Under the pieces are notes generated by a model that saw only the letters and a program-made list of their open reading frames with translations, ran no database searches and was not told the DNA's origin. A DNA stretch of 64,000 nucleotides from Candidatus Micrarchaeota archaeon (GTDB lineage: Archaea; Micrarchaeota; Micrarchaeia; Anstonellales; JAHKLY01): assembly GCA_020854825.1 (NCBI GenBank), contig JAHKLY010000002.1, positions 31,487 to 95,486 of the forward strand. The letters are read 5' to 3'. A program made the translations under genes and the position numbers. Positions 1,406-61,790 of the stretch are shown piece by piece. Positions within the stretch are counted from its first letter, which is position 1. The number at the start of each line of letters is the position of its first letter.

Positions 1406-2509
1406 ATGATATCCAAGGATTCAAAGCAAGTATTGGGAATGCTTGAAAATAAAAAAACTATTATGGTGGCGCAAATAGCACCAGCAGTAAGAGTTTCTAT
1501 GGGTGAAGAGTTTGGGTATAATTTAGGAACAGAAATAACTGAAAAATTAATAAGTGCTTTAAAGCAATTAGGTTTTGATTATGTTTTTGATACCTGTTTT
1601 GGTGCAGATGTTGTTACATTGGAAGAAGCATATGAGTTAGATTTAAGAATAAAAAATAATGGGCCTTTCCCTTTAATGACTTCTTGCTGTATTGGTTGGA
1701 GAAATCATGGATTGCAATTTTATCCTCAAAAATTAAAGAAGTTATCCACTTGTATGGCACCGCAAATAACTTTGGGTGCATTGATAAATAGTTATCTTCT
1801 TAAATATTTGAAAGTTAAAGATGATAAAAAAGTGGGAGTAGTTTCAATAATGCCTTGTATATTAAAAAAACAAGAAGCAAAACAAGAAGCTACAATTGGG
1901 TTAGAAGAAGTAAATTTTGTTTTAACAACAAAAGAATGTGCTGATTTATTAAAATATAAAAACATTGATTTGAAAAAATGTGGAAAAACTGATTTTGATA
2001 AATACTTAGGTCATGCAACTCAAGCAGGCAAAAAGTTTGGTGCGACAGGGGGAGTTTTAGAAGCAGTAATAAATACATATGCAGCAATGAAAGGTGATAA
2101 AACAAGAATAACAATTGATGATGATAAACCATTAAATGAATATTCTGTTAACATAGATGGAAAAAAATTGAATATCGCAAAGGTTTGGGGATTGCAGAAT
2201 TTAGATAAAATTATAGAACAAATTAAATGCGAAAAAAAAGAAATACATTTAATTGAAGTAATGGCTTGTCCATTTGGGTGTGTTGGAGGTCCAGGACAAC
2301 CAACTCCCGTAAATAATGAGAAGAATAAAAAACGTGCAAATGCATTAAGAAAATATGCTAAACAAGAAAATATGGAAACTCCATATGATAATAAAGATAT
2401 AAGAAAAATATATAATTTATATTTAGATAAAATAGGAACTGAAAAAACAAAAGAACTTTTACATATGGGTTTTATTCATTCAAAAATTAAAAATAATTTA
2501 AAAAGGTGA
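1406..2509 (+). CDS. hydA: [FeFe]-hydrogenase catalytic H-cluster domain protein (ultraminimal, no ferredoxin-like N-terminal domains)
   Basis: All three H-cluster signature motifs are present: P1 TSCCIGW (TSCCPxW), P2 MPCILKKQE (MPCxxKxxE), P3 EVMACPFGCVGGPGQP (ExMACxxGCxxGGGQP). The 367-aa protein begins directly with the H-domain. Confidence 0.8.
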   Translation: MISKDSKQVLGMLENKKTIMVAQIAPAVRVSMGEEFGYNLGTEITEKLISALKQLGFDYVFDTCFGADVVTLEEAYELDLRIKNNGPFPLMTSCCIGWRNHGLQFYPQKLKKLSTCMAPQITLGALINSYLLKYLKVKDDKKVGVVSIMPCILKKQEAKQEATIGLEEVNFVLTTKECADLLKYKNIDLKKCGKTDFDKYLGHATQAGKKFGATGGVLEAVINTYAAMKGDKTRITIDDDKPLNEYSVNIDGKKLNIAKVWGLQNLDKIIEQIKCEKKEIHLIEVMACPFGCVGGPGQPTPVNNEKNKKRANALRKYAKQENMETPYDNKDIRKIYNLYLDKIGTEKTKELLHMGFIHSKIKNNLKR

Positions 2510-3944: not shown

Positions 3945-6900
3945 TTGTGTATGTCTAATATTATAAAAAATATATTTTTAGTAGCATTTGTTTTAATTGT
4001 ATTTAGTTTTGGCATTGTAAATGCTTGGGTTCCTCAATGTAGTGGAAATACATATGACTTTATTTGTGGAGATATAGTAGATGAAAGCTGTATAATGAAT
4101 GGTAATTTAACTTCTATAGGAACGTGTTTTACAGTATATGCAGACAATATTGTAATAGATTGTGATGGATATACAATCACAGGAAGTCAAACTGGATATG
4201 GAGTTTTAAATGACGGGTATGATAATGTTAGTATAAATGGATGTATAATACATGATTTTACAGTTGGAATACAATTTTATGATTCTACAATTGGATTAAT
4301 TTATAATAATACTGTTTATGATAATAATAATGGAATTACATTAGATAATAGTTCCTTAATTAATGTTTCTGGTAATGATGTATATGGTCATGATTATGGT
4401 ATTTCTTTAATAGATGGATCAAATAATAACACAGTAGCAGATAATAGTGTGAATGGCAATGACTTTGGTATTTATTTAACTATTAGTCCTGGTAATAATC
4501 TAACTAATAATTTTGTATGTAGAAATTCAGAAGTAGATGTATATGATAATGAATTTCCAAATAATAATTGGGCTAGAACTATATATTCCTCATCAGACCC
4601 AAATAATTCAACTTATTTTGCACAAGTAGGGGATTGTTCTTTTGAACAAGGAGTATGTGGACAATTTATAAATGAAGATATAGTATTAACTGAAGATATA
4701 GAATGTACTGAAGAAGGAATAGGAGATTCCGGAATTGTAGTTGAAGCTGATAATATTACAATAGATTGTAATGGATATTCAATAATTGGTTTTATGGGTT
4801 CAGGGATTGGAGTTGAAGTTAGTGGTTATGATGGAATTACAATTATAAATTGCAACGTTTCAAATTTCCTGACCGGAATTTATGTTGAAGATTCTATAGG
4901 TACTGAAGTTTATGACAGTATAATATATTACAATGGTATGTTGGGGCCCGATATGACTGGAATTCATTTCTATAATGTGAATTATTCAGCCATATATAAC
5001 AACTTAGTTCATGAAAATGATATTGGAATTGTTCTTGAAGATTCATACGAAAATGAAGTTTATGAAAATGAAGTGTATGATAATCTATTCCAAGGCATAC
5101 ATCTTGTAAATTCTGAACATAATGTGATTTATGATAATCACATATACTGGAATGCTGACATTGGTTTGTACATTTTAAATTCAACTAACAACTTGTTTGA
5201 AAATAATACAGTTTGCACTAATAGGTTATCTGATATTCTTTTTAGGGGGACAAGCGAAGGAAATGAAGGAGACAATACCTGCAATGTTCTTGATGATACT
5301 GAGGAAGATATGAACATGGAAGTAACTTGTTCAATTACTTGTCCATATTATGGCAATTGCGGTGATGAAATTGACGGAGATATTGTTTTAGCAAGGGATA
5401 TTGAAGATTGCGAAGACGGTTTAATAGTAACCACAGATAACATTGTAATTGACTGTAATGGATATAGAATTTATGGTGATGGAATAAATGGCGGAATAGG
5501 AATTTTAGTTGATAGTTTGGATAATATAACAATAAAGAATTGCACTATCAAATATTTCGGGGTAGGTATTGCTTTGTTTAATTCTAATTCCAGCACACTT
5601 ATGAGCAATTATATGGATTCCAATGGTATGGGTGGAGAAACCGGAATCTATATGTTTAATAGCAATTATACAACAGTTGAAAACAATTTAGTTGAAAATG
5701 ATGACGGCACGGGCATAAACCTGGAATTTGGGTTTTTGAATACTCTTACCAATAACACTTTGTTAAACAATCTTTATGGTATCTATTTAATATCTAGCCA
5801 CAATAATACTTTGACAGATAATACTGCGAATGAAAATGTATTCGGAATTGATTTAGGTAATTCTGCAAACAATACATTATCTGGAAACACTGCAAATAAA
5901 AATATAGTAGTAGGGGTTTATTTAACTGGTACGAGTACTAACAATTACTTAATTGAGAATACTGTAAATCAAAACATAGGTGAAACTTATGGAATATTAT
6001 TATCAGAGGGAGCAGATGAAAATACCTTAATAAACAATACAATAATTGGCAATACTGCGGGTATGAACGTAGGTTCTTTAAATAATACATTAATAGACAA
6101 TTTCGCTTGTGCAAATATTGTTGATATTATTGATTATACTGATGGAAATGATTGGACAAGAACAACTTATACTTTCTCTGATCCAGTGAACACAACATAT
6201 TTTGATCAATTAGCCACTTGTCCATTTATTCAAGGTTTATGCGGACAGACAGTAACTGAAAGTGTAACTTTAACAGAAGACATTGTTTGCGAAGAAGGGG
6301 ATATATTTAGTCCCCGGCCTACTGCATTGGTAATCGGGGCAAATAACCTCACAATTGACTGTGATGGAAACTATTTAATCGGATATGCAGATTATGCAGG
6401 AATTTTATCATCTGGATACAATAATACTGAAATAATAAATTGTGATATTTCAGGATTCTTTTACGGAATCTATTTTGAGGACTCAAACAATTCAATTGTA
6501 GAGGATTCAAATCTTCATGAAAATATGTGTGAGGGAATGTATATCTACTCTTCCAGTGAGGACCCATATCATGCATACGTTTATGATACAGTTTTTGAAG
6601 ATAATTATCAAGAATGTGTACTGACTGGATTGTATTTATCTTCGTCCACATTATTTATGTGGAACAGTGAATTCATAAATAATGGAGAATATGGGTTATA
6701 CGAGGAGTTTAGGGGCATTCCAGATACTGTTTATTGGACCATAGATGATTATGCATATTGCAAGGACAACGGAATTTATATCAGCACAGCAGACGGTTAC
6801 ATAACTTTTGATGAAGGTGTTTTGGAAATAGATAACTGTACAATTGAGATATATAACAGAGAAACAGAAACATGGGCAATATGGTCTATAGAAGGTAACA

Positions 6901-7670
6901 TGACTGATTATATACCAGAAAGAGAAGTTGAAGCAAATGAATCTGAAGAATTTGTGTTTGAAAATTCAGATGCAATAATAACTTTAGAATTAAATGAAAC
7001 AACAAATATTTCATTCTTTGTTGGTTTATTAAATGCAGGTCAATTAGAAGCATTAGGAGATTCTCCAACAGGATTAATTCCATTCAAAGGAATAAATGTA
7101 GAAATTAATGAAAATGAAATAAATGGTACTATAACAATTTGTATTACCTATACTGATGATGAATTAGATGATGCAGGAATAGAAGAAGATACATTAGTTA
7201 TGTATTATTTCAATGAAACATCTGATGAATGGGAAATAATAACTCTCCAAAGGCAAGGGTCAAATAGAGTATGTGCAGAAATACCACATTTCAGTATATA
7301 TGCATTATTTGGTGAAAAAACTGAAGAAGATGGAGGCTCACCTAGAGGAAGCAGTTATACTGGTGGCGGTGCAAGACCAGTAGGACAGAGTCCAATAACA
7401 ACTGAAGAAGAAGAGGAAGAATTACAAATAGATGAAGAAGAATTAGAAGAAGAAATAATAGTACCAGAAAAACCAAGTGAAGAAATACCAGATGAAAAAC
7501 CAATAGATACAACTAAACCATATGTACCTCCAACAATTGAAGAACAACAAGAAGAAAGTGATTTTACAGGTATATATATTGTTGCAGGAATAATTATAAT
7601 TGCAGGAATAATATACTGGTGGATGACAGCAGCAAAAGCAGGTAAAAAAGGATTAATGAGATTTAAATAA
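3945..7670 (+). CDS. large cell-surface protein with parallel beta-helix (NosD/pectate-lyase-like) repeats, acidic linker and C-terminal TM anchor
   Basis: Signal peptide. Repeated I(D/E)CNGY(T/S/R)I(T/I/Y)G and N-x-(I/V)-x-x-N repeat units typical of right-handed beta-helix proteins. Two long internal module duplications (WARTIYSSSDPNNSTYFAQVGDCSFEQGVCGQ / WTRTTYTFSDPVNTTYFDQLATCPFIQGLCGQ). E/P-rich spacer. C-terminal hydrophobic helix plus basic tail (..IIYWWMTAAKAGKKGLMRFK). Confidence 0.7.
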   Translation: MCMSNIIKNIFLVAFVLIVFSFGIVNAWVPQCSGNTYDFICGDIVDESCIMNGNLTSIGTCFTVYADNIVIDCDGYTITGSQTGYGVLNDGYDNVSINGCIIHDFTVGIQFYDSTIGLIYNNTVYDNNNGITLDNSSLINVSGNDVYGHDYGISLIDGSNNNTVADNSVNGNDFGIYLTISPGNNLTNNFVCRNSEVDVYDNEFPNNNWARTIYSSSDPNNSTYFAQVGDCSFEQGVCGQFINEDIVLTEDIECTEEGIGDSGIVVEADNITIDCNGYSIIGFMGSGIGVEVSGYDGITIINCNVSNFLTGIYVEDSIGTEVYDSIIYYNGMLGPDMTGIHFYNVNYSAIYNNLVHENDIGIVLEDSYENEVYENEVYDNLFQGIHLVNSEHNVIYDNHIYWNADIGLYILNSTNNLFENNTVCTNRLSDILFRGTSEGNEGDNTCNVLDDTEEDMNMEVTCSITCPYYGNCGDEIDGDIVLARDIEDCEDGLIVTTDNIVIDCNGYRIYGDGINGGIGILVDSLDNITIKNCTIKYFGVGIALFNSNSSTLMSNYMDSNGMGGETGIYMFNSNYTTVENNLVENDDGTGINLEFGFLNTLTNNTLLNNLYGIYLISSHNNTLTDNTANENVFGIDLGNSANNTLSGNTANKNIVVGVYLTGTSTNNYLIENTVNQNIGETYGILLSEGADENTLINNTIIGNTAGMNVGSLNNTLIDNFACANIVDIIDYTDGNDWTRTTYTFSDPVNTTYFDQLATCPFIQGLCGQTVTESVTLTEDIVCEEGDIFSPRPTALVIGANNLTIDCDGNYLIGYADYAGILSSGYNNTEIINCDISGFFYGIYFEDSNNSIVEDSNLHENMCEGMYIYSSSEDPYHAYVYDTVFEDNYQECVLTGLYLSSSTLFMWNSEFINNGEYGLYEEFRGIPDTVYWTIDDYAYCKDNGIYISTADGYITFDEGVLEIDNCTIEIYNRETETWAIWSIEGNMTDYIPEREVEANESEEFVFENSDAIITLELNETTNISFFVGLLNAGQLEALGDSPTGLIPFKGINVEINENEINGTITICITYTDDELDDAGIEEDTLVMYYFNETSDEWEIITLQRQGSNRVCAEIPHFSIYALFGEKTEEDGGSPRGSSYTGGGARPVGQSPITTEEEEEELQIDEEELEEEIIVPEKPSEEIPDEKPIDTTKPYVPPTIEEQQEESDFTGIYIVAGIIIIAGIIYWWMTAAKAGKKGLMRFK

Positions 7671-34832: not shown

Positions 34833-35951
34833 ATGAAAATACCAAATATTTATGAACAAGATTACAAAAAACTAATGGTTCTTCCAATTCTATTAATTAT
34901 AATTTCGTTATTTTTTATACCTCAAATCAAAGTAGGAATTGATTTTAAAGGAGGCACTATAATTACATTATATTCAGATTATACAATACAAACAGAAAAT
35001 TTAGAAAATGATTTATTACAAGCAGGAATTAGTTTACATTCAGTAAAACAATTTAAAACCACATTAGGAAATGTAGTTGAAATTGAAATTGAAAATGAAG
35101 AATTAATATATGAAGCAGAACAATTAAGATCTGATTTTTCAAATATTTTTGAAAATGTTTCAAGACTTGAATCATATGTTGCACAAACAAATGGGGAAAA
35201 TCAAACTATAATTAATGAATATACTAATGAAAGAAGCAAAGCAGATAAAATTGCAAATAATTTATTTAAGTTATCTGGTTATACCGAAAAAACAGCAGAA
35301 CAAGCAGAATCAACAAATGAATTGAAAAGTTTAGTAACTAAAGCGTATCTGAATATAAAATCTGATTATGAAGATAAATTAGATAGTATATTAAAAAGTA
35401 ATGTTAATTACTCTTCTATAACAGTAGATATTGTTTCACCCTCTCTAAGTTCTAAATTTATTGAAAAAGCAACGTTTGTAACAGTAATTGCAATAGTTTT
35501 TGCTGTTATACTTTCATTTATTGTTTTTAGAGATATTATGCCAAGTTTACTTGTATTAACTGGTGCAGCAGCAGATATTATTATTTGTTTAGGTGCTATG
35601 GGGTTATTTCAAATTCCATTTACTTTGCCTTCATTTGCGGCATTATTAATGATGTTAGGGTTTTCACTAGATACAGATATGCTTTTAACTATGAGAATGT
35701 TAAAACAACATGAAGGAACACCAAAAGAAAGAGCATATGAAGCAATGAAGACAGGTGCAACAATGAGTTTAACTGATTTTATTGCATTTGTAGCATTATT
35801 TGTTCTTGCAATAATGACAAATATATCAACATATTATGAAATTTCTGCAATAGCAATTTGTGGATTAATAGGAGATATAATTGCAACATGGTTATTTAAT
35901 GCAGTTATATTACTAATATATTTAGAAAAAACAAAAAAGGTGTATATATGA
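34833..35951 (+). CDS. secF: protein-export membrane protein SecF
   Basis: GIDFKGGT motif after TM1, periplasmic domain, C-terminal 5-TM bundle. Overlaps the downstream secD-like gene. Confidence 0.65.
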   Translation: MKIPNIYEQDYKKLMVLPILLIIISLFFIPQIKVGIDFKGGTIITLYSDYTIQTENLENDLLQAGISLHSVKQFKTTLGNVVEIEIENEELIYEAEQLRSDFSNIFENVSRLESYVAQTNGENQTIINEYTNERSKADKIANNLFKLSGYTEKTAEQAESTNELKSLVTKAYLNIKSDYEDKLDSILKSNVNYSSITVDIVSPSLSSKFIEKATFVTVIAIVFAVILSFIVFRDIMPSLLVLTGAAADIIICLGAMGLFQIPFTLPSFAALLMMLGFSLDTDMLLTMRMLKQHEGTPKERAYEAMKTGATMSLTDFIAFVALFVLAIMTNISTYYEISAIAICGLIGDIIATWLFNAVILLIYLEKTKKVYI

Positions 35952-37513
35952 GTTTTTCAAGTTTAATTAGAGATAAAAGAGTAATTGCATTGTTTATATT
36001 TACATTATTAGCTATTAGCATAGCTTATTTTGGCGGATTAAAATTTGGTATTGATTTTAGTGGGGGTACAAGAATTCCTGTTATACTTGAAAGACCGGTT
36101 TCAACAGAAGTCATGGATCAAATGATTGAGACTATTAAAACAAGAGTAAGCACTTTTGGTTTAACTGAAATTAAAGTTAGGGCCAGAGGGGATGATGAAA
36201 TAATTGTAGAAATTCCAAGTTATGACGATCAGACTGTAAGACAAACAATAGAAATATTAGAAAGACAAGGAGTATTTTTAGCAGTTTTTGATGGAAAATC
36301 TGCACTCAAAGGGAGTGAAATTTATACTGGTTCCATAGTTCAAATTCCAGCAGAAAGATCCGGTTGGTGGTCTGTTAGTGTTTCTGTATCAAATGCTGCA
36401 TCAACAAAGTTTGGAGAAGTTTCAGAAGGAAAAGCAGGATACCCAATTTATATGTTTTTAGATAGGCCTTCAGACGCATCTATATTTATTACAAAAGAAC
36501 ATTTAGTACAAGATACGGAGTTATCTACTGAAGATGCAATAACAATGCTTAATGATGCATTAAGATTAGAAGGTAATTCAATTGGTTTATATTTAATTGA
36601 CGCTTTTGATAATTATAAAGAAGATTTAACTCCAATTTCAAATACTTCAAAAGCAATAATTTCTAAAGAAACATCTAATGAAATTAAACAAGAATTAAGA
36701 GATAAGGGATTTATTTTAATTGAAAAGGAGGATAAAGATTTATATCCCAAATATTCAATATCCACAACACATAATACTGTTGTTAAATGGGATGCAATTG
36801 GACTAGTATCAGTTCCTTATTTAAGTCCTTCGTTAGCAGGGGGCCCAGCATCACATAGAGGAACATATGCTATTTCTGGACCTGGAGAAGGGAATACAGT
36901 TCAAGAGATGAATTTTAATGCTCAGTTAAAAGCAAGAGAGATGCAATCAATACTCAAAGGAGGATCATTACCTGTAGGTATATCAGTTGGAAGTAAAACC
37001 TCAATTCCAGCCCCATTAGGGTCTAAGTTTTTAGAATGGAGTGCAATTGGAGGATTAGTGGCATTATTAATAATAAGTTTAGTGGTAAGTATAAGATATA
37101 TGGATTTTAAATTAGTATTTCCAATATTAATTGTTTCATTAGCACAAATAACCATTTTAGTTTGTATAATTGGGTATTTTACAATTGATTTGGGTGCATT
37201 TGCAGGTCTAATCGCAGCAGTAGGTACTAGTGTTGATGAACAAATTGTTATTACAGATGAATTAATGAAAAAAGATGGTTCTGATGTTAGGACTAAACTA
37301 AAGCGTGCTTATGCAATTGTTACAAGGTCAAGAGCAATTATTATTGTTGCAATGCTTCCTTTGTTATTATTTTCAGGATTAGTAGAAATTATTGGTTTTG
37401 CAACATCTACAATCTTAGGTGCATTTTTAGGAGTATTATTAGCAAGGTATTCATATGCAGCATTTGTTGAACATTTAATTTTGAAAAAGAAAATACCTTC
37501 TGAAAAAAAGTAA
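35948..37513 (+). CDS. secD: protein-export membrane protein SecD
   Basis: GIDFSGGT motif, large periplasmic domain, C-terminal 6-TM domain. 521 aa. Confidence 0.65.
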   Translation: MSFSSLIRDKRVIALFIFTLLAISIAYFGGLKFGIDFSGGTRIPVILERPVSTEVMDQMIETIKTRVSTFGLTEIKVRARGDDEIIVEIPSYDDQTVRQTIEILERQGVFLAVFDGKSALKGSEIYTGSIVQIPAERSGWWSVSVSVSNAASTKFGEVSEGKAGYPIYMFLDRPSDASIFITKEHLVQDTELSTEDAITMLNDALRLEGNSIGLYLIDAFDNYKEDLTPISNTSKAIISKETSNEIKQELRDKGFILIEKEDKDLYPKYSISTTHNTVVKWDAIGLVSVPYLSPSLAGGPASHRGTYAISGPGEGNTVQEMNFNAQLKAREMQSILKGGSLPVGISVGSKTSIPAPLGSKFLEWSAIGGLVALLIISLVVSIRYMDFKLVFPILIVSLAQITILVCIIGYFTIDLGAFAGLIAAVGTSVDEQIVITDELMKKDGSDVRTKLKRAYAIVTRSRAIIIVAMLPLLLFSGLVEIIGFATSTILGAFLGVLLARYSYAAFVEHLILKKKIPSEKK

Positions 37514-54871: not shown

Positions 54872-54877
54872 TTTATT

Positions 54878-55858
54878 TTAAATTAATTTTATTAATCCCC
54901 TGCCTATTTCTGCTAAATCCGCACCTAACATCATAGCAAATGAACGTATAAAGGTATAAGTAATAATTAATGCTATTACTGGTGAAATAAATATTCTCAA
55001 TAATATTGCAAAAAAACTACTTTCAAAAAACATTCCAAGTATTGTTTGATAATCAATACTCATTGCCATGTTCTTAATTAAACTTGCAGTTGCTATATTA
55101 TTACCAATACATAATTCTTCTAACATTTTATTATACTCATCTAGATTTTCAATTTCAAATGCTTCTAAGGATTCTGATGTACTACCTGATACAAAAAGAG
55201 TCATTAAAAAAGCAGAGGGAAGCACAATTGCAAAACCTAATCCCATAGCAATAAACATTGCTCCTACACCCCTAGTTGGAGGAAATGCTCTTAATATAAT
55301 ACCCATGGGTAATATTATTACTGCTAGATAATCTCCAAATTTCATTACCTCAACAAAAAAATACATCCACATTACAAATATCCCTAATACGTTTATTATC
55401 CAAGTGAATGTTCCGATAATTGTATTTGGGAGTGAGGCTGCACCAGGAATAAATGTTTTACTTAATAATCCTCCCATATCAGTTCCTATTATTGAAATTT
55501 CTTTACCAAATGCAAAAAAGAAACCTGCACTAAATACATTTCTATATGTTTTTTTAATTGGCCCCAATATTTTATAAACTTCAAAAACTGCGGCATTAAC
55601 AGGGTCTGAACCAAGTACTGGTGCAGTTGAAGTTGTATGTGTTAATTCATTTGAAACTTCTTGGGTTAAATAAAGCATACCTTGAATAAATCCTATAATT
55701 GCTAAAATTATAAATGCAGTTATTAAAATTTCCATATACTCACTTTTACACCATTTTTCTAATCCTTTTAAAGAAAATGCTCTCGCCATCATATAGAATA
55801 TAGTAATTCCCCCCAAGCAAAAAATTGCCAATATTAGAGTTAATATTATCCAATCCAT
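54878..55858 (-). CDS. paralog 6 of tandem polytopic membrane protein family (R-x-F-P-x-T-R motif)
   Basis: LPMGIILRAFPPTRGVGAMFIAMG motif. C-terminal MLGADLAEIGRGLIKLI. Its start overlaps the upstream gene's stop. Confidence 0.6.
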   Translation of the reverse strand: MDWIILTLILAIFCLGGITIFYMMARAFSLKGLEKWCKSEYMEILITAFIILAIIGFIQGMLYLTQEVSNELTHTTSTAPVLGSDPVNAAVFEVYKILGPIKKTYRNVFSAGFFFAFGKEISIIGTDMGGLLSKTFIPGAASLPNTIIGTFTWIINVLGIFVMWMYFFVEVMKFGDYLAVIILPMGIILRAFPPTRGVGAMFIAMGLGFAIVLPSAFLMTLFVSGSTSESLEAFEIENLDEYNKMLEELCIGNNIATASLIKNMAMSIDYQTILGMFFESSFFAILLRIFISPVIALIITYTFIRSFAMMLGADLAEIGRGLIKLI

Positions 55859-56979
55859 TATATCATCCGTGTTAGATTTGATAAATCTATTTGTTCACCA
55901 AAGAACCTTGAAAATTCTCTCATTGATGTTGCCAATATAGCAAAATTTAATAGGGGTAAAAATAAACTACCCAAAATATTAATTGCCAACATTTTCCAAG
56001 TTGCCATAGATAATGCACTAAACATTATTTTCATAGGTTCAATTATACCAATCTTAAAAGTTATTGGTGCACTTGTATGTATATTTCCATCAAACATATC
56101 TGCAGGACTATTAATATGTAGATTAATAAATTGATTTGCTTGCATTTGTTCTGCAACAAATTCAATAATTCCTTCCCACATTCCAAATACTCCAATACCT
56201 TGTAATGCGACACTATTAATAACTAAGAGCATAGGCCAAAATAAACCCAATGCAATTGTTAATCCAATAAGTGTTCCCCCAAACCTTCTTGTAGGTTCAA
56301 AGCATCTTAGTAATATGCCAATAGGCAGGTATATAGTAAACATTCCAGCATATACATAATTAAATAACATAAGTTGGGTTATAGATGTTACAAGCATTGT
56401 TATTATTCCTATTTGTGCTATTTCAAATACTCTATTTAAACTATTTAATCCCTTTCCAGGAGTAATGCCAATACCCAAACCTATAATATCCACTGAAAAT
56501 TTAAAATTTCCAATAGTTTCTCTTTGAATATTAAAGAAAAGTATGCTTGTTAAAGAAATAGTATTCATTCTCATAAGTGTGGTTAAATAATCTTTTGCTT
56601 CTACGACCATTGAGTCATCGCCAGCACCTAGAACATTACCAAAAATCATTTTAGGAGTTAAACCTCCAGAACATAAAATAAATTCTGAAAATCCAACAAT
56701 AACGAGCAATATTAATACAGTTGCACCAACTTGTAGCATTTCATATTTTGCCCATGTTTCACCTTTTTGTATTTGCATCCCCCTACATATAAGAAATATA
56801 ATTAATAGAATTAAAAGAGAAATCATTATTGCTATATAGCAAGTGACAGCCCATGAAGACATAAATGCATTCAAATCTCCCCCACAAACATCATCTGGAA
56901 ATATATCAAATAATGCAGAATGCGACAGATTAAATAGTAGAATTATGCATAGGATAAATAAGGGAATTTTTTTGATCAT
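55858..56979 (-). CDS. paralog 5 of tandem membrane protein family
   Basis: LPIGILLRCFEPTRRFGGTLIGLT. C-terminal FFGEQIDLSNLTRMI. Signal-peptide-like N-terminus. Confidence 0.6.
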   Translation of the reverse strand: MIKKIPLFILCIILLFNLSHSALFDIFPDDVCGGDLNAFMSSWAVTCYIAIMISLLILLIIFLICRGMQIQKGETWAKYEMLQVGATVLILLVIVGFSEFILCSGGLTPKMIFGNVLGAGDDSMVVEAKDYLTTLMRMNTISLTSILFFNIQRETIGNFKFSVDIIGLGIGITPGKGLNSLNRVFEIAQIGIITMLVTSITQLMLFNYVYAGMFTIYLPIGILLRCFEPTRRFGGTLIGLTIALGLFWPMLLVINSVALQGIGVFGMWEGIIEFVAEQMQANQFINLHINSPADMFDGNIHTSAPITFKIGIIEPMKIMFSALSMATWKMLAINILGSLFLPLLNFAILATSMREFSRFFGEQIDLSNLTRMI

Positions 56980-58181
56980 ATTAATTTCACCAATTCTGCT
57001 ACATTCATATCTGAACCTAAGAATTTTCCCATTTCTTGTATAAATGTAAATGTAATGAATATATTTAATGAAGGCAATATAAAACTACCTATCATTACTA
57101 GAAAAATACCTTCTTGGAGCATAATATAAAAGGCGTCCATATATAAATCACTAATTGCTCCAGCAACCATTGGATAAAGAAGCTGCCGATTTTTAAATAT
57201 AGTGGGAGTTCCACTTGTCATAAATTCTTTAAATGATTTATATAATGGATCTATTATGGCATTTGTAATTTCTCTACCTGGCCTATTAAGAGTAGGAGGG
57301 AAAGCATAGAAATGGTCTTGTGCATAATTTATCATTTCATAAGGATATACTCCAATATATGCAGACATTATTAAATTATTGAGATTAAGCATAATTGGAT
57401 AAACAAAATATAGGCCTAGTGCAAGGGCAATTAATCCCCCCCCTACAGAACGAGTAGTTGGAAAACTTCGCAATATTAATCCCAATGGTAAAAATAAAGC
57501 AAGCATTTTATCTGAAGTAAAACATAGAATAAACATATTACCAATCCAGCTTGTTATTGCAGGTAATAAAATAACCAAAGACCAATCAGTTAGTTTAGAC
57601 ACAATGCCAAACATTGAACCAAAATCATAATTAATTCCAATCATATTAAATGGAGTGAAATTAATTTCTATTGAGAATAACCCTTCTAAAAACATATTTA
57701 TAGTTAACATATGGTATCCTAAATGCATTAGTTCTGCAGCCATTGCTTCTGAATAATAATATGCAGTTTGTAATAAAGTGCACCCCGCATTTGGATCGCT
57801 TGGGTCAGAGTATCCACATAAAGTTACATCACAATCACCTACATTTTGACAAGAAGGGTTATTTAATTTTCCAATTTGATCTAAAGGCCCTATCAATGCA
57901 AGCAATAAAACAATAAGTATGAAGGATGCACTAACTTGCCAAATTTCATTTTTTCCCCATGCACTAATATTTGGAAGGTCCACTGCTTTTCCGATTAAAA
58001 ACACACAAACAGCAATCATAAATACAAGAAAAACTCCAGTAATAGATAGTACTAACCAGTTTAATGATGAATCTTGTAGTCCAATTGTTGGGCATGTTTG
58101 AGTCGGTTGTACTAAACTAAATCCTGTGATATTATTAATACAAAGGAAAAACATAATTACTAAAATTAATTTATTATTCAT
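56976..58181 (-). CDS. paralog 4 of tandem membrane protein family
   Basis: LPLGLILRSFPTTRSVGGGLIALA. C-terminal FLGSDMNVAELVKLI. Confidence 0.6.
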   Translation of the reverse strand: MNNKLILVIMFFLCINNITGFSLVQPTQTCPTIGLQDSSLNWLVLSITGVFLVFMIAVCVFLIGKAVDLPNISAWGKNEIWQVSASFILIVLLLALIGPLDQIGKLNNPSCQNVGDCDVTLCGYSDPSDPNAGCTLLQTAYYYSEAMAAELMHLGYHMLTINMFLEGLFSIEINFTPFNMIGINYDFGSMFGIVSKLTDWSLVILLPAITSWIGNMFILCFTSDKMLALFLPLGLILRSFPTTRSVGGGLIALALGLYFVYPIMLNLNNLIMSAYIGVYPYEMINYAQDHFYAFPPTLNRPGREITNAIIDPLYKSFKEFMTSGTPTIFKNRQLLYPMVAGAISDLYMDAFYIMLQEGIFLVMIGSFILPSLNIFITFTFIQEMGKFLGSDMNVAELVKLI

Positions 58182-58189
58182 TTTTTCAC

Positions 58190-59437
58190 CTATAAGAAAT
58201 GTGATAATCCTGCAATTGATGCATCTCCTCCAAAAAATGGAGCCATTGTTTTTATTGAAGCTAAAATAGCGAATAATACAAGTAAAGGTATAATAACAGT
58301 TAGCATAGCAATTTTACCAATCATATGTAAGATACCGTCTATTTCAAGAGCCATATTCTGTCCTTTAAGATGCATAAGAAGATATGCATCAGAAATCGAA
58401 AAAACTCTATTATAATATTCAGTAAATCCTTTACCTATATTTTTAAGCGATTCAAGAGGATGAAGAAAATCAAAATGTGCATTTTCAAAATCAAATTGAG
58501 GTAACAAACTTGCACTTCCTTCAGTCATAAAATCAGCATAAGGCAGTAGTTTTTGTCCAGTCAAAGAGGTCTGTAATCCTATAAAGTTTCCTGATTCAAA
58601 CATTGCCCTATGGCCAATAATATATGGTAATGGAGCAATATAATACAGGCTAAGAGATGTAGCTATTAAAAACCCCCCCAATTTTCTAGTAAATTCAAAA
58701 CTTCTAAATACAAATCCACTAATTAATAAAACTGGAAATAAAACTTGTGCTACTATATCTACTGCATTTTTTTGAATTATATTAATAATTAAAGAATGTG
58801 ATAAAAGTTTGAATGCTTTAGCATACATTCCAAATTCTACTGAATATCCTACTCCCGGCATAATTTTTAGTATTTCTGGAAGCAACAAGAAAGGAGGTTT
58901 AGGCGCAATTACGTATCCTTGTAATAAAAATTTAAAAGATGAAAAAAAGCTTAATTGTTGGTATAATAATAACATTTGTGTCATTGTTTCTGATATCAAC
59001 CATTCTGTTCTATCTAAAAATGATAGTGTTACACATATATGAGGAGCGTAATTTCTGCCTACTACTTCAAATCCTTTTTTTGTATATAAACACTTTCCAT
59101 CTGGATTTAATGCAACACCTGCCTCTTGCATAGTCAAAGTATTGGATAATATTAAATCAATATTTGGAGTTGTATCTATTGAAGAATATGGATCTAATTG
59201 CACAATTCCTTTGGGGATGATTTCGTTATCTATAATTGGTATTGCAACAACGACAATCAAAAAGAAAAAGAATAGATTTAGAATGACTTGCCCATATTCA
59301 GTTTTTGCCTTTGCTCTTAAAGATTCGTCTTGTAATATAAATGAAAATAAATGTATTAGAACATAAATTCCAAGCATAATTAAAGATAGTACAAATGTAA
59401 GCAAAAGCCCCTGTGTTTGTAATTCTATAGGTATCAT
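58190..59437 (-). CDS. paralog 3 of tandem membrane protein family
   Basis: FPVLLISGFVFRSFEFTRKLGGFLIATS. C-terminal FFGGDASIAGLSHFL. Confidence 0.6.
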   Translation of the reverse strand: MIPIELQTQGLLLTFVLSLIMLGIYVLIHLFSFILQDESLRAKAKTEYGQVILNLFFFFLIVVVAIPIIDNEIIPKGIVQLDPYSSIDTTPNIDLILSNTLTMQEAGVALNPDGKCLYTKKGFEVVGRNYAPHICVTLSFLDRTEWLISETMTQMLLLYQQLSFFSSFKFLLQGYVIAPKPPFLLLPEILKIMPGVGYSVEFGMYAKAFKLLSHSLIINIIQKNAVDIVAQVLFPVLLISGFVFRSFEFTRKLGGFLIATSLSLYYIAPLPYIIGHRAMFESGNFIGLQTSLTGQKLLPYADFMTEGSASLLPQFDFENAHFDFLHPLESLKNIGKGFTEYYNRVFSISDAYLLMHLKGQNMALEIDGILHMIGKIAMLTVIIPLLVLFAILASIKTMAPFFGGDASIAGLSHFL

Positions 59438-60390
59438 TAATCAAACCTCTGTATTAAGAATTTTTGAAAACTATTTATAAAAGATACTGTTATTGCCATA
59501 CTTATTGTAGGTAAAAATAATCCCTGCATTAAAACAACTGACAGCATTATAAATCCATTAAATATTTCATATAGTTTTGGCTCTATTACTTGAAATGTTT
59601 TTCCCCAAGCACCTGTAAATGCATCAAATGTTGTGCTATTTGGTATTTCATCAAATATTATTTGAGTTATTGAAATCATGAAGTTATCTTGTATATCTGA
59701 AACAATATTTTCAACTATTGCTGCGTGGATTACATATGAAAATGGAAAAACAATATAAAATCCAATTGCAACTGCGATTAAAAATGAACCTGAATTTCTT
59801 GTAGTTGGAAATATTCTTAAGAAAATTCCGATTGGCAATACAAAAGGAATCATTATTGCTTTTATAATTGATAATGCAAATTGTTGTATTGCTAAACTTG
59901 CATAAAATGGACTCATTAAAGCAAATACTTTATCTAATGCTTTTGTTAAAGTACTTAAATCAAACGGAGGAAAGGTAACGTCTGCTCTTATTGGAATTCC
60001 TATCAAGGCTACTCCAGGTATGTCATTTAATCCTATCTTTATATTTATTTTAGTTAATATATCCATTCCCACCCTCCCATAGAATACAGATTTCATAGTT
60101 CCAAATGTATCAACAAGTAGGTTTTCTAAATATTCTAAAGATATAGTAAATGGGTCATTTCCAATTAATTGAGTGCTTATTTCAAATAATCCTTGTATTC
60201 CAAATATAATAAATAACAAAATAGCAATAGATACCAATATCTGATATAATTCCATTCTTGCAAAAATTTCAAATTCTTTATTATTTAATAATTTAGAAAG
60301 CAAATAAGAAATTGCAGTTAATGCTACCATAATCATTAAAGGTACGATAGAAAGTTGCAATGCAGTTATAAATGCTTGATCAAATGCCAT
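59437..60390 (-). CDS. paralog 2 of tandem membrane protein family
   Basis: LPIGIFLRIFPTTRNSGSFLIAVA. Stop/start overlap with neighbours. Confidence 0.6.
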   Translation of the reverse strand: MAFDQAFITALQLSIVPLMIMVALTAISYLLSKLLNNKEFEIFARMELYQILVSIAILLFIIFGIQGLFEISTQLIGNDPFTISLEYLENLLVDTFGTMKSVFYGRVGMDILTKINIKIGLNDIPGVALIGIPIRADVTFPPFDLSTLTKALDKVFALMSPFYASLAIQQFALSIIKAIMIPFVLPIGIFLRIFPTTRNSGSFLIAVAIGFYIVFPFSYVIHAAIVENIVSDIQDNFMISITQIIFDEIPNSTTFDAFTGAWGKTFQVIEPKLYEIFNGFIMLSVVLMQGLFLPTISMAITVSFINSFQKFLIQRFD

Positions 60391-60391
60391 A

Positions 60392-61663
60392 TTATCCCAA
60401 CTTTAATTTTTCAATTCCAAATATTTTTGTTTCTCCTCCTAAAATTCCAGAGATATTTGCAAATAAGGTTAAACAAATAATAACATCCATAAAAAAACAA
60501 ATAGCAATAAAAATAAACTTCTGTAAAACTTGATTTGCTAAAGCGGCTGTGTAATGAATTGGTTCAGCTGCAAATTCACTTAAATTAATGCCTAATGCAG
60601 CACCAGCAAGTGCAGTTGTTAATTTGGATAATTTACTTAAGGTTCCAAATAATAAATTGTTTATTGTATTGCTAATTACTTCTCCTGCTCTTATCACAGA
60701 TCTTCCAATATATGCAAAAAAGTTTTTTATTTTATCACCTAAATTTGAATTCCAATTAGTTTCTTCGTTTATATCATTTATATTATCTGTTAATGAACCA
60801 AATTCATCAATTAATATATCTCCCCCTTCAGGATAATGTTCATCCATTTTTTCCTGCATTTTTGTTTCATCTTCAAGTTTTTGTTCTAATCTTTCTTCTA
60901 ATAATGCAACAGAAATTGGATCCTCATTATCATATGATAAACCACCTAAGAACATATTGACATATATATATTGATTAAATAAAATAGTCATTGGAAAAAT
61001 GAAATAAAAAGTAATTGCTAATGCAATTAATGTAGAACCTAATCTTCTTGTTATGGGTAATGCGCGTAATATTATCCCCAATGGGAAAAATATTGTGAAT
61101 GAAGTTATTTTAATAAAATCCAATATGGAATCCATTACAGATACTAAAAAGTTTGTCATAATAACAGTTTTAGTTATATCTCCAATCATATCTGCAACTA
61201 TATTCAATCCTGCTAATGGTTGCATGCTTACACTCACTACAAAACCAACAAGACCCCCCATAGGTATGGGAACTCCAAATGTTATTCCATATTTAGAATA
61301 ACCAGATAAAATTGCACTAGTTCGTACTCCTCTTTCCGCAATATTTTGTAGATTTAAATCCAGTACTTTTAGAAACACTTTTCCTTGTGTAAAATATACG
61401 GGATCGTTTATATCTAAAGGTCCTGAATAACCTATTAATGCATAACATACTAATAATACCACATAATGAAGTAAAAACATCCCAAGAAAAACTATTAATA
61501 CAGAATAAATCAATTCTTTAAATTCTTTTTGTGCCCAGCCTTTTAATTGAGGAAATCCTCCCAAAGTAGATATTAAATATGCAAATAAAGCACCGCCTAG
61601 ACTTATCATTAATCCTATAAATACTAGTACATATGCTTGTGAACTAAATACCATATAATTCAT
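60392..61663 (-). CDS. paralog 1 (first gene) of tandem membrane protein family, with acidic insertion
   Basis: FPLGIILRALPITRRLGSTLIALA motif. E/D-rich insertion (EERLEQKLEDETKMQEKMDEH). C-terminal FGIEKLKLG. Confidence 0.6.
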   Translation of the reverse strand: MNYMVFSSQAYVLVFIGLMISLGGALFAYLISTLGGFPQLKGWAQKEFKELIYSVLIVFLGMFLLHYVVLLVCYALIGYSGPLDINDPVYFTQGKVFLKVLDLNLQNIAERGVRTSAILSGYSKYGITFGVPIPMGGLVGFVVSVSMQPLAGLNIVADMIGDITKTVIMTNFLVSVMDSILDFIKITSFTIFFPLGIILRALPITRRLGSTLIALAITFYFIFPMTILFNQYIYVNMFLGGLSYDNEDPISVALLEERLEQKLEDETKMQEKMDEHYPEGGDILIDEFGSLTDNINDINEETNWNSNLGDKIKNFFAYIGRSVIRAGEVISNTINNLLFGTLSKLSKLTTALAGAALGINLSEFAAEPIHYTAALANQVLQKFIFIAICFFMDVIICLTLFANISGILGGETKIFGIEKLKLG

Positions 61664-61724
61664 TTAATTGTGTTAAATATATAAAGGTTTATTTATCGGG
61701 CATTTATAAAGAAATAGTATAAAT

Positions 61725-61790
61725 CGCTCAGTCCGCTCGTCAATCCTCATTGGCTTGCGCCTTAGTGATCACCTTCGTCCTCATTGCGAT
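61725..61790 (-). ncRNA. candidate box C/D-like sRNA or structured 5' leader, upstream of the membrane-paralog operon
   Basis: Minus strand: AUCGC-AAUGAGGA-[12 nt CGAAGGUGAUCA]-CUAA-GGCGCAAGCC-AAUGAGGA-[12 nt UUGACGAGCGGA]-CUGA-GCG. Two C-like boxes (UGAGGA variant of UGAUGA), D'/D boxes, two 12-nt spacers, terminal CGC/GCG stem. It is the only GC-rich intergenic island in the window. Confidence 0.3.

Follow-up and report, generated by a model that had tools for sequence, protein, structure and literature searches.

A six-gene operon in a Micrarchaeota chromosome

The 64,000-nucleotide stretch of DNA analysed here, referred to throughout as the window, comes from a Candidatus Micrarchaeota archaeon (assembly GCA_020854825.1, contig JAHKLY010000002.1, positions 31,487 to 95,486 of the forward strand) and carries at 54878-61663, on the minus strand, six consecutive genes encoding polytopic membrane proteins (g1 to g6; collectively, the hexad). 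A first-pass annotation made from the sequence alone had described them as an operon of true paralogs belonging to a family that it could not place. The coordinates and lengths of the six open reading frames (ORFs) proved to be exactly as claimed (423, 317, 415, 401, 373 and 326 amino acids, aa), and the description itself was borne out, the proteins having no match in Pfam, NCBIfam or the PDB. They are identical to hypothetical proteins KO317_02100-02110 of a Candidatus Micrarchaeota metagenome-assembled genome (MAG), and a Pfam survey of the large ORFs identifies the window as ordinary archaeal chromosome (PolD, Cdc48, Orc1/Cdc6, ThrRS, ArgRS, NrdD, SecDF, exosome, aCPSF1/FttA, PCNA and RIO kinase). 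The genes of the hexad and their promoter element, in window coordinates, are as follows (TM, transmembrane segment).

61678-61685, minus: TATA box TTTATATA of the operon promoter, read from the sequence, ~15-24 nt upstream of the g1 ATG
60392-61663, minus: g1, position-1 paralog, 423 aa; 5-TM core with an acidic insertion of ~100 aa in the TM4-TM5 outside loop
59437-60390, minus: g2, position-2 paralog, 317 aa; minimal form of the fold
58190-59437, minus: g3, position-3 paralog, 415 aa; long TM2-TM3 outside loop, variant core RSFEFTRKLGG
56976-58181, minus: g4, position-4 paralog, 401 aa; extra signal-peptide-like N-terminal segment, Cys-rich outside loop
55858-56979, minus: g5, position-5 paralog, 373 aa; signal-peptide-like N-terminus, core RCFEPTRRFGG
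54878-55858, minus: g6, position-6 paralog, 326 aa; last gene of the operon

One-base TAATG overlaps join g5 to g6 (55858) and g2 to g3 (59437), an ATGA four-base overlap joins g4 to g5 (56976-56979), and gaps of 1 nt (60391) and 8 nt separate g1 from g2 and g3 from g4, respectively; the three overlaps and the single-nucleotide gap at 60390/60392 listed in the first-pass annotation were thus found again at each junction. Shine-Dalgarno-like motifs of the GGTGA/GAGGT type lie 5-10 nt upstream of the internal gene starts, and a TATA box was found upstream of g1 only, not of the internal genes. Together, the overlapping or abutting starts and stops, the lone TATA box and the internal Shine-Dalgarno-like motifs show that the genes form a single operon with translational coupling. 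Upstream of g1, CCTTTATATATTTAACACAATTAA is kept in two other loci of the family (L001 and L004; loci are designated by L numbers) and nearly so in a third (L002), in a spacer that otherwise diverges. Elsewhere in the family, 162 of the 225 intra-array junctions fall between a 4-nt overlap and a 20-nt gap.

Paralogy and predicted topology of the subunits

Pairwise BLASTP among g1-g6 returned E-values of 1e-3 to 2e-7 (nominal database of 1e8 residues), family profiles recover all six proteins at E < 1e-60, and eight columns of their alignment are invariant (E47, G196, R200, T205, R206, G209, I213 and P224 in g1 numbering). The R-x-F-P-x-T-R-x-x-G motif that had been singled out in these proteins is conserved in homologs, its reduced form R-x5-R-x2-G being present in nearly every member of seven related arrays. 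Since the motif recurs in these arrays and each position is orthologous across 41 arrays (see below), the paralogy of the six proteins is, judged from sequence, far beyond chance.

Some details of the anatomy first proposed for the subunits require revision. Hydropathy places five TM segments in each, two of which, and not a single N-terminal helix, precede the variable region. The (K/N)-x-E-(W/Y) segment, predicted to form the short cytoplasmic loop between TM1 and TM2, retains an invariant Glu but has no fixed aromatic position; the core motif, described as nearly invariant, is replaced in g3 by the variant LISGFVFRSFEFTRKLGG; and the C-terminal F-x-G-x-D...L..I signature, described as common to all six, is missing from g2.

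The loops differ markedly in composition and conservation. Among close orthologs, the TM1-TM2 loop bearing K-x-E (15% K+R), the TM3-TM4 loop bearing R-x-F-P-x-T-R-x-x-G (21.5% K+R) and the C-terminal tail (10% K+R), all predicted to lie inside, are 81%, 85% and 91% identical, respectively, against 42-59% for the N-tail and two long loops predicted to lie outside (2.4-5.7% K+R). These figures point to a conserved cytoplasmic face and a variable external one. The topology predicted for the family, N-terminus outside and C-terminus inside, is further fitted by the signal-peptide-like N-termini of g4 and g5, which are followed by cysteines, and by distant g2 orthologs in which a Cys in the N-tail has been gained together with one immediately behind TM2. 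The topology prediction that the first-pass annotation had suggested as a check therefore gives a coherent picture, in which five hydrophobic segments, large extracytoplasmic loops, and positive-inside and conservation statistics agree. AlphaFold2 models of g2 (predicted local distance difference test score, pLDDT, 78.6; predicted TM-score, pTM, 0.71) and g4 (pLDDT 68.8) are all-helical, long helices running on from the TM segments into an outside helical bundle.

Some members of the family are giants, with N-terminal extensions of up to ~950 aa or TM4-TM5 loop insertions of up to ~1,180 aa, in which neither Pfam domains nor double cores were found. Two variant arrays (L053:738-9436 and L054:1717-6528) contain giant members of 1,102-1,603 aa; their extra sequence, which has no Pfam domain, is either inserted into the TM4-TM5 outside loop (~1,100-1,180 aa) or added at the N-terminus (~760 aa).

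A fixed set of six genes across Micrarchaeota

A HMMER search of 1.84 billion representatives recovered 3,211 family clusters at E <= 1e-3 (counted at 50% identity), 2,812 of them at E <= 1e-10, and every cluster member bearing a name is from Micrarchaeota. The scan of GTDB species representatives yielded 45 loci, all in Micrarchaeota or closely allied DPANN MAGs; no family relative was found on viral contigs. Almost every locus with sufficient flanking sequence has exactly six same-strand family genes, and conservation of the array in the archaea, to which the first-pass annotation had drawn attention, thus takes the form of a fixed hexad in 41 arrays from Micrarchaeota and allied DPANN MAGs.

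In a neighbour-joining tree of 246 proteins from these 41 arrays, each array position forms a pure clade of 38-40 of the 41 possible members, with no intruders (40 for position 1, that of g1, of which P0002, P0004, P0005 and P0008 are orthologs), and the best window match of a protein at position i is g_i, even for distant arrays. Such positional clades indicate that the sixfold duplication is older than the sampled radiation and that gene order has been frozen since. Three MAGs have two arrays, both of them complete sets that are 30-35% identical position by position; proteins with two cores and copy-number drift were not seen among the arrays. The claim that the six proteins are made for one hetero-oligomeric membrane complex is strongly suggested by this combination of fixed copy number, fixed order and duplication of whole sets. 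Most likely, the six paralogs form one hetero-oligomer at 1:1:1:1:1:1 stoichiometry, probably as a pseudo-sixfold ring.

The same evidence bears on the alternative that the six proteins are independent surface receptors or adhesins for host recognition, co-transcribed and sharing no complex. Such a function would be in keeping with outside loops that evolve fastest (42-59% identity, against 81-91% inside), with the tolerance of insertions of up to ~1,180 aa and N-terminal extensions of up to ~950 aa, and with the adhesin-like giant proteins encoded near some clusters. Families of this kind, however, usually vary in copy number, whereas here number, order and positional orthology are fixed across 41 arrays and sets are duplicated whole. 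Moreover, conservation is highest in the cytoplasmic loops and tails, the giant members have no recognisable adhesin domains, and N-glycosylation sequons are not enriched outside (5 observed against ~10.8 expected). We consider this alternative improbable.

Searches for known families and folds

No match to g1-g6 was found in Pfam, NCBIfam, PADLOC or PHROGs, 37 diverse family members gave no recurrent match in Pfam, and PDB sequence profile searches with the family were also negative. Foldseek, run as the first-pass annotation had advised, placed the proteins no better: no fold relative was significant, the top rows having E-values of 0.2-1 and TM-scores < 0.2. A TTYH/prominin-like pentaspan likeness (TM-scores < 0.2) was set aside as evidence. 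An origin in a mobile element, virus or defence system was likewise dismissed, as the arrays lie in housekeeping synteny and neither viral contigs nor PADLOC hits were found.

Membership of a well-characterised transporter family such as ABC-2 or FtsX, which would have run counter to the first description of the hexad, was not seen: no Pfam or NCBIfam family appears at E <= 0.1 beyond isolated noise, and the PDB yields only an ABC transmembrane domain (TMD) at E 0.14. That the paralogs are diverged conventional permeases (ABC-type TMDs, for instance), each with its own substrate, would draw on this weak, non-significant likeness to type-I ABC exporter TMDs (PDB profile E ~0.14; Foldseek E 0.2-1 with TM-score < 0.2). 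We regard the idea as very improbable, given that none of these matches is significant, that no Pfam or NCBIfam transporter family occurs among the 37 diverse members, that no ABC ATPase or binding protein is encoded near any locus, and that the family has been found linked to no ATPase other than one of the VirB4/HerA type.

Association with a pilin and ATPase gene cluster

A first analysis of the neighbours of the hexad in the genome loci turned up nothing but housekeeping genes specific to single clades, SecDF among them. In one clade (L009, L011, L013, L016, L017 and L021), the hexad is followed immediately, on the same strand, by SecF and SecD; in the window they map at 34833-37513, ~17 kb from the hexad. 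A protein of ~920 aa (TM plus coiled coil) is divergently transcribed upstream of the hexad in nine loci. Between g6 and a DUF373 gene, three loci carry an opposite-strand gene of 187-191 aa (L001:16816-17379, L002:9363-9938 and L004:16820-17395), where the window has a gap of only 6 nt (54872-54877), suggestive of loss or original absence of this gene.

Other loci place the family in a different context. In L048 and L052, a solitary family member is encoded after a protein of 123/125 aa and is followed by a protein with two TM segments (tm2), an ATPase and a winged helix-turn-helix (wHTH) protein. These solitary members fall in none of the six positional classes defined by class-specific hidden Markov models (HMMs) and, for this reason, may represent the state before duplication. 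Their clusters (L048:9574-16108 and L052:2550-6935) adjoin the gene for ribosomal protein L10e and encode a 159-aa protein after the wHTH protein; L048 has in addition a second HerA-like ATPase of 725 aa. In L020 and L051, a complete hexad occupies the place of the solitary member, the order being two pilin genes, the hexad, two tm2 genes, the ATPase gene and p99; in L055, tm2 follows the hexad.

A metagenome scan with the ATPase profile, of which the best 80 of 234 loci were examined, revealed 14 loci (class A) with family genes directly upstream of two tm2 genes, the ATPase gene and p99. The hexad is complete in seven of them, and the others end at a contig or locus edge or have one member unresolved; two further loci of the 80 have the tm2 pair and no hexad. 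Wherever a hexad adjoins the cluster, it is inserted at one point, after the pilin genes and before tm2, in the same orientation and with short gaps. Class-specific HMMs assign the embedded hexads of L020, L051, L057 and L060 to positions 1-6 in order, and L065 shows positions 2-6, with class margins of 16-116 bits (typically 40-110); these hexads are therefore orthologous to g1-g6. More divergent embedded hexads still consist of six genes, of ambiguous class.

The linked ATPase gives Pfam hits to AAA_10, DUF87/HerA, TrwB_AAD_bind, P-loop_TraG and FtsK. The full-length protein aligns over residues 58-333 with 4ag5, a VirB4 ATPase domain of known structure (E 8e-8), and also hits HerA, its hhalign probability against TrwK is 69%, and some members of its clusters are named 'type IV secretory pathway VirB4 component' by JGI. 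By its sequence, then, it belongs to the VirB4/HerA clade. The ATPase ORFs of L065 and L066 (1,055-1,057 aa) and cluster member P0348 (1,047 aa) have twice the usual length; a mate in a 90%-identity cluster is named 'LAGLIDADG family homing endonuclease', suggestive of an intein within the ATPase. No PDB relatives were found for tm2, or for a membrane-anchored protein of ~800-900 aa (p800) encoded downstream in these clusters, and tm2 has no similarity to VirB3 or VirB8.

The 123/125-aa protein is pilin-like, with a signal peptide, two hydrophobic helices and a basic loop. It aligns over nearly its full length to the Pfam TrbC/VirB2 family (PF04956; E 0.0024, 18.5 bits, cutoff 27.9); a profile of ten such sequences has TrwL, a VirB2 pilin, as its sole PDB hit besides noise (E 0.21), with an hhalign probability of 61% against TrwL. 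The helix-loop-helix of the pilin also aligns to TM1-loop-TM2 of the hexad family, if weakly (hhalign E 7.4e-4, probability 25.6%), and in ~12 arrays (L029-L035, L042, L043, L045, L047 and L049) two pilin-like repeats are fused to the N-terminus of the position-2 protein. A precedent exists in the relationship of CedA1 to the N-terminus of CedA and of VirB2 to VirB6 (Beltran et al., PMC9905601). The hairpin alignment, the natural fusions to paralog 2 and this precedent together argue that the family and the pilins are connected, both physically and in evolution.

A candidate platform for a type IV secretion or Ced-like apparatus

We propose, with a probability of roughly 60%, that the hexad is the membrane platform or channel, in the slot that VirB6 holds in bacteria and CedA/TedA in Crenarchaeota, of an undescribed type IV secretion system (T4SS) or Ced-like apparatus of Micrarchaeota, which would transport DNA, protein or another substrate. 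The VirB6-like role is inferred from gene context, not from homology, and the link to the pilin/ATPase apparatus would extend to the window's own genome by orthology only, with the partners presumably encoded elsewhere in that genome. The suspicion in the first-pass annotation of a VirB6/TrbL-type component thus gains ground as to role and context, from orthologous hexads and solitary members lying between pilins and ATPase; it finds none as to homology, and the partner genes are not in the window.

Several observations weigh against this proposal. PF04610 is absent at E <= 1 from g1-g6 and from the 37 diverse members in Pfam, the family profile compared with a TrwI/VirB6 profile (R388 TrwI and 20 homologs, all with PF04610) reaches an hhalign probability of 0.26%, global mode also finding nothing, and neither PDB sequence profiles nor Foldseek detect homology to VirB6/TrbL. 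No homolog of the pilin, tm2, the ATPase, the zinc-ribbon protein (s2tm) and coiled-coil protein (p250) described below, or p800 was found in the 64-kb window or near the hexads of L001, L002 and L004. Detachment from the pilin/ATPase genes is likewise the rule among the 41 genome arrays, and a detached hexad and an ATPase cluster were never linked within one genome, the window's included, despite attempts. The pilin assignments are each sub-threshold taken singly, and VirB6 is a pentamer and not a hexamer (PMC12624023). Finally, 36 of the 80 scanned loci (class B) consist of one to four pilin genes, tm2 and the ATPase gene with no adjacent family member, which suggests that the core machine may work without the hexad. 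The class B ATPases are also from Micrarchaeota (Micrarchaeia, Anstonellales), and both classes carry downstream a zinc-ribbon protein with two TM segments (s2tm), a protein of ~250 aa with a coiled coil and wHTH (p250), and p800. The class B loci (within L061-L136, plus L143 and L144) are surrounded by housekeeping genes, on contigs that reach 1.37 Mb.

Membership of VirB6/TrbL by homology is not supported at the above hhalign probability (0.26%), and comparison with solved VirB6 or DotA structures gave no reproducible similarity. TM3 of TrwI carries P181-x9-P-T-x-R194 at its cytoplasmic end, and the corresponding place in g2 reads P186-x8-P-x-T-R198; we treat this Pro...Pro-Thr-Arg similarity as a resemblance only.

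Alternatively, the hexad may be a self-sufficient hetero-oligomeric complex that acts, for instance, as a scaffold of the envelope, as a large-pore channel or as a conduit for lipids or metabolites. In that case its place beside the cluster in some lineages would result from co-regulation or from the accretion of envelope genes and would not mark a shared machine. We find this rather unlikely. In its favour, most arrays, that of the window included, stand alone amid housekeeping genes that differ by clade, 36 ATPase clusters have no adjacent family member, VirB6 homology is missing, and the Mce1A-F proteins offer the precedent of a heterohexamer that conducts lipids and has its ATPase gene at another site (PMC9882608). 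Micrarchaeota are moreover reported to be transporter-poor and host-dependent (PMC8975820). Against it, adjacent hexads are without exception inserted after the pilin genes and before tm2, in the same orientation and with short gaps, solitary members fill the identical slot, and neither the pilin-paralog 2 fusions nor the pilin-like hairpin is easily understood unless a physical relationship exists. The TM helices are also devoid of conserved charged or polar residues that could line a pore, save for an E-x-x-Q stripe at the cytoplasmic end of TM2.

Under the proposed platform role, the apparatus would comprise the hexad, VirB2-like pilins, tm2, the VirB4/HerA-like ATPase, the zinc-ribbon 2-TM protein, the wHTH protein and the membrane-anchored protein of ~800 aa. 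On the conserved cytoplasmic face, the two short loops (K-x-E and R-x-F-P-x-T-R-x-x-G) and the C-terminal tail would serve to bind tm2 and the hexameric ATPase or to stabilise the ring; pilins would be recruited, or their assembly templated, by the pilin-like hairpin at the N-terminus of every paralog; and the variable ectodomains would provide the base of the extracellular structure. A far more specific version, which we advance as speculative and rather unlikely in its entirety, is that of a heterohexamer assembled in gene order, possibly as a lock-washer, whose hairpins template a conjugative-type pilus and whose loops dock a hexameric VirB4-like ATPase. Such a complex would match its ATPase in symmetry, unlike the bacterial T4SS with its 5:6 VirB6/VirB4 mismatch. 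The apparatus would be the DPANN counterpart of the T4SS of the candidate phyla radiation (CPR), would be required for the episymbiotic uptake of DNA or other macromolecules or their exchange with the host, and would work even when the hexad and ATPase genes are unlinked, as they are around the window.

Other features of the window

Between a DNA-alkylation-repair gene and g1 lies a GC-rich element of 64 nt (61725-61788, minus, CGCAATGAGGACGAAGGTGATCACTAAGGCGCAAGCCAATGAGGATTGACGAGCGGACTGAGCG) in a genome of 28% GC. L001 and L004 carry it unchanged and L002 with a single mismatch, although the spacer around it diverges and the proteins encoded next to it are only ~53-72% identical. Its layout (ATGAGGA, 12 nt, CTAA, a GGC-GCAA-GCC hairpin, ATGAGGA, 12 nt, CTGA, with a terminal CGC..GCG stem) looks like that of an archaeal C/D-box small RNA; a comparison with Rfam gave no match at E <= 1.

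The ORF at 1406-2509 (plus strand) encodes 367 aa with [FeFe]-hydrogenase large-subunit C-terminal (PF02906, E 1e-74) and small-subunit (PF02256) domains and is very short for such a protein; minimal archaeal [FeFe] hydrogenases are reportedly the subject of a 2024 paper in Cell (PMC11216029). The 1,241-aa protein encoded at 3945-7670 (plus strand) has repeated right-handed beta-helix/NosD domains and is probably a surface protein. ARAGORN found no tRNA genes in the 64-kb window.

Comparison with known systems

VirB6/TrbL proteins (PF04610; TrwI of R388, DotA of Dot/Icm) are, as proposed for the hexad, polytopic inner-membrane proteins at the centre of their machines, and in Rickettsiales they occur as tandem paralog arrays. 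TrwI shares with the family ~5 TM segments, a large outside loop after TM2 and the Pro...Pro-Thr-Arg at the cytoplasmic end of TM3, and differs from it in the TM4-TM5 outside loop, short in TrwI but long and variable in the family. VirB6, like the family in related Micrarchaeota loci, is encoded between or near genes for a VirB2-like pilin and a VirB4-like ATPase, from which the operon of the window is, by contrast, detached. The N-terminal hairpin of VirB6 resembles its pilin (PMC9905601), and that of the family does so weakly. VirB6 forms a homopentamer in the T4SS stalk (PMC12624023), where the hexad has six distinct paralogs in fixed order, suggestive of another stoichiometry.

The Ced and Ted systems, minimal archaeal chromosomal DNA-import machines consisting of CedA/TedA, the pilin CedA1/TedC, CedA2 and the VirB4-like ATPase CedB/TedB (PMC9905601), resemble the Micrarchaeota clusters (L048, L052, L020 and L051) in combining a 2-TM pilin, a polytopic protein encoded directly downstream of the pilin gene, a second 2-TM protein and a VirB4/HerA-like ATPase. 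In Ced, the polytopic protein has an N-terminus related to the pilin, and the same may hold for the Micrarchaeota family. By their published description, CedA/TedA are single-copy proteins with 6-7 TM segments, unlike the six paralogs with five; Ced and Ted are known from Sulfolobales and Thermoproteales and not from DPANN, and are described without the zinc-ribbon 2-TM protein, the wHTH protein p250, p800 and p99 of the Micrarchaeota clusters.

The best organisational precedent for a detached hexad is the mycobacterial Mce1A-F module, six tandem paralogs in conserved order, each present in one copy in a hetero-hexamer that spans the envelope, with the ATPase MceG encoded elsewhere (PMC9882608). 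The likeness is organisational only: family and fold are unrelated, and neither g1-g6 nor the 37 diverse members gave a Pfam match to MCE/MlaD; Mce proteins have one TM segment and an MCE beta-barrel domain, and their partner is an ABC transporter instead of a VirB4-like ATPase.

As an ecological parallel, and one of organisation too, the chromosomal T4SS of Patescibacteria (CPR) is closest, being likewise widespread in an ultra-small, host-dependent lineage and comprising VirB4, VirB6, VirB3 and VirB2-like pilins. The epibiont Ca. S. epibionticum ML1 was reported to need the virB6 gene detected in it for growth (PMC12102498). Unlike the hexad, this system is bacterial, its VirB6 is detectable by standard profiles, and it has no six-paralog arrays.

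The archaeal T4SS-like systems in the searchable literature are Ced, Ted and those of conjugative plasmids, and we found there no description of the present family or of a VirB4/pilin system in Micrarchaeota; the SPEARE proteins of Nanohaloarchaea have VirB4-like domains in an architecture unlike that of the Micrarchaeota cluster. The hexad thus newly defines a large unannotated protein family of unprecedented, fixed six-paralog organisation, which its gene context links to a VirB4-ATPase/VirB2-pilin cluster found widely in Micrarchaeota and apparently unreported. Micrarchaeota are reported to have few transporters (PMC8975820), and the apparatus proposed here, which bears on how DPANN archaea attach to their hosts and exchange material with them, is a concrete candidate for a cell-cell transfer machine that could be tested in the existing co-culture of Ca. 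Micrarchaeum harzensis. If the proposal is correct, the Ced/Ted/T4SS lineage would reach into DPANN, in parallel with the T4SS of CPR bacteria, and the hexad would represent a natural experiment in which a homo-oligomeric platform turned into an ordered hetero-oligomer.

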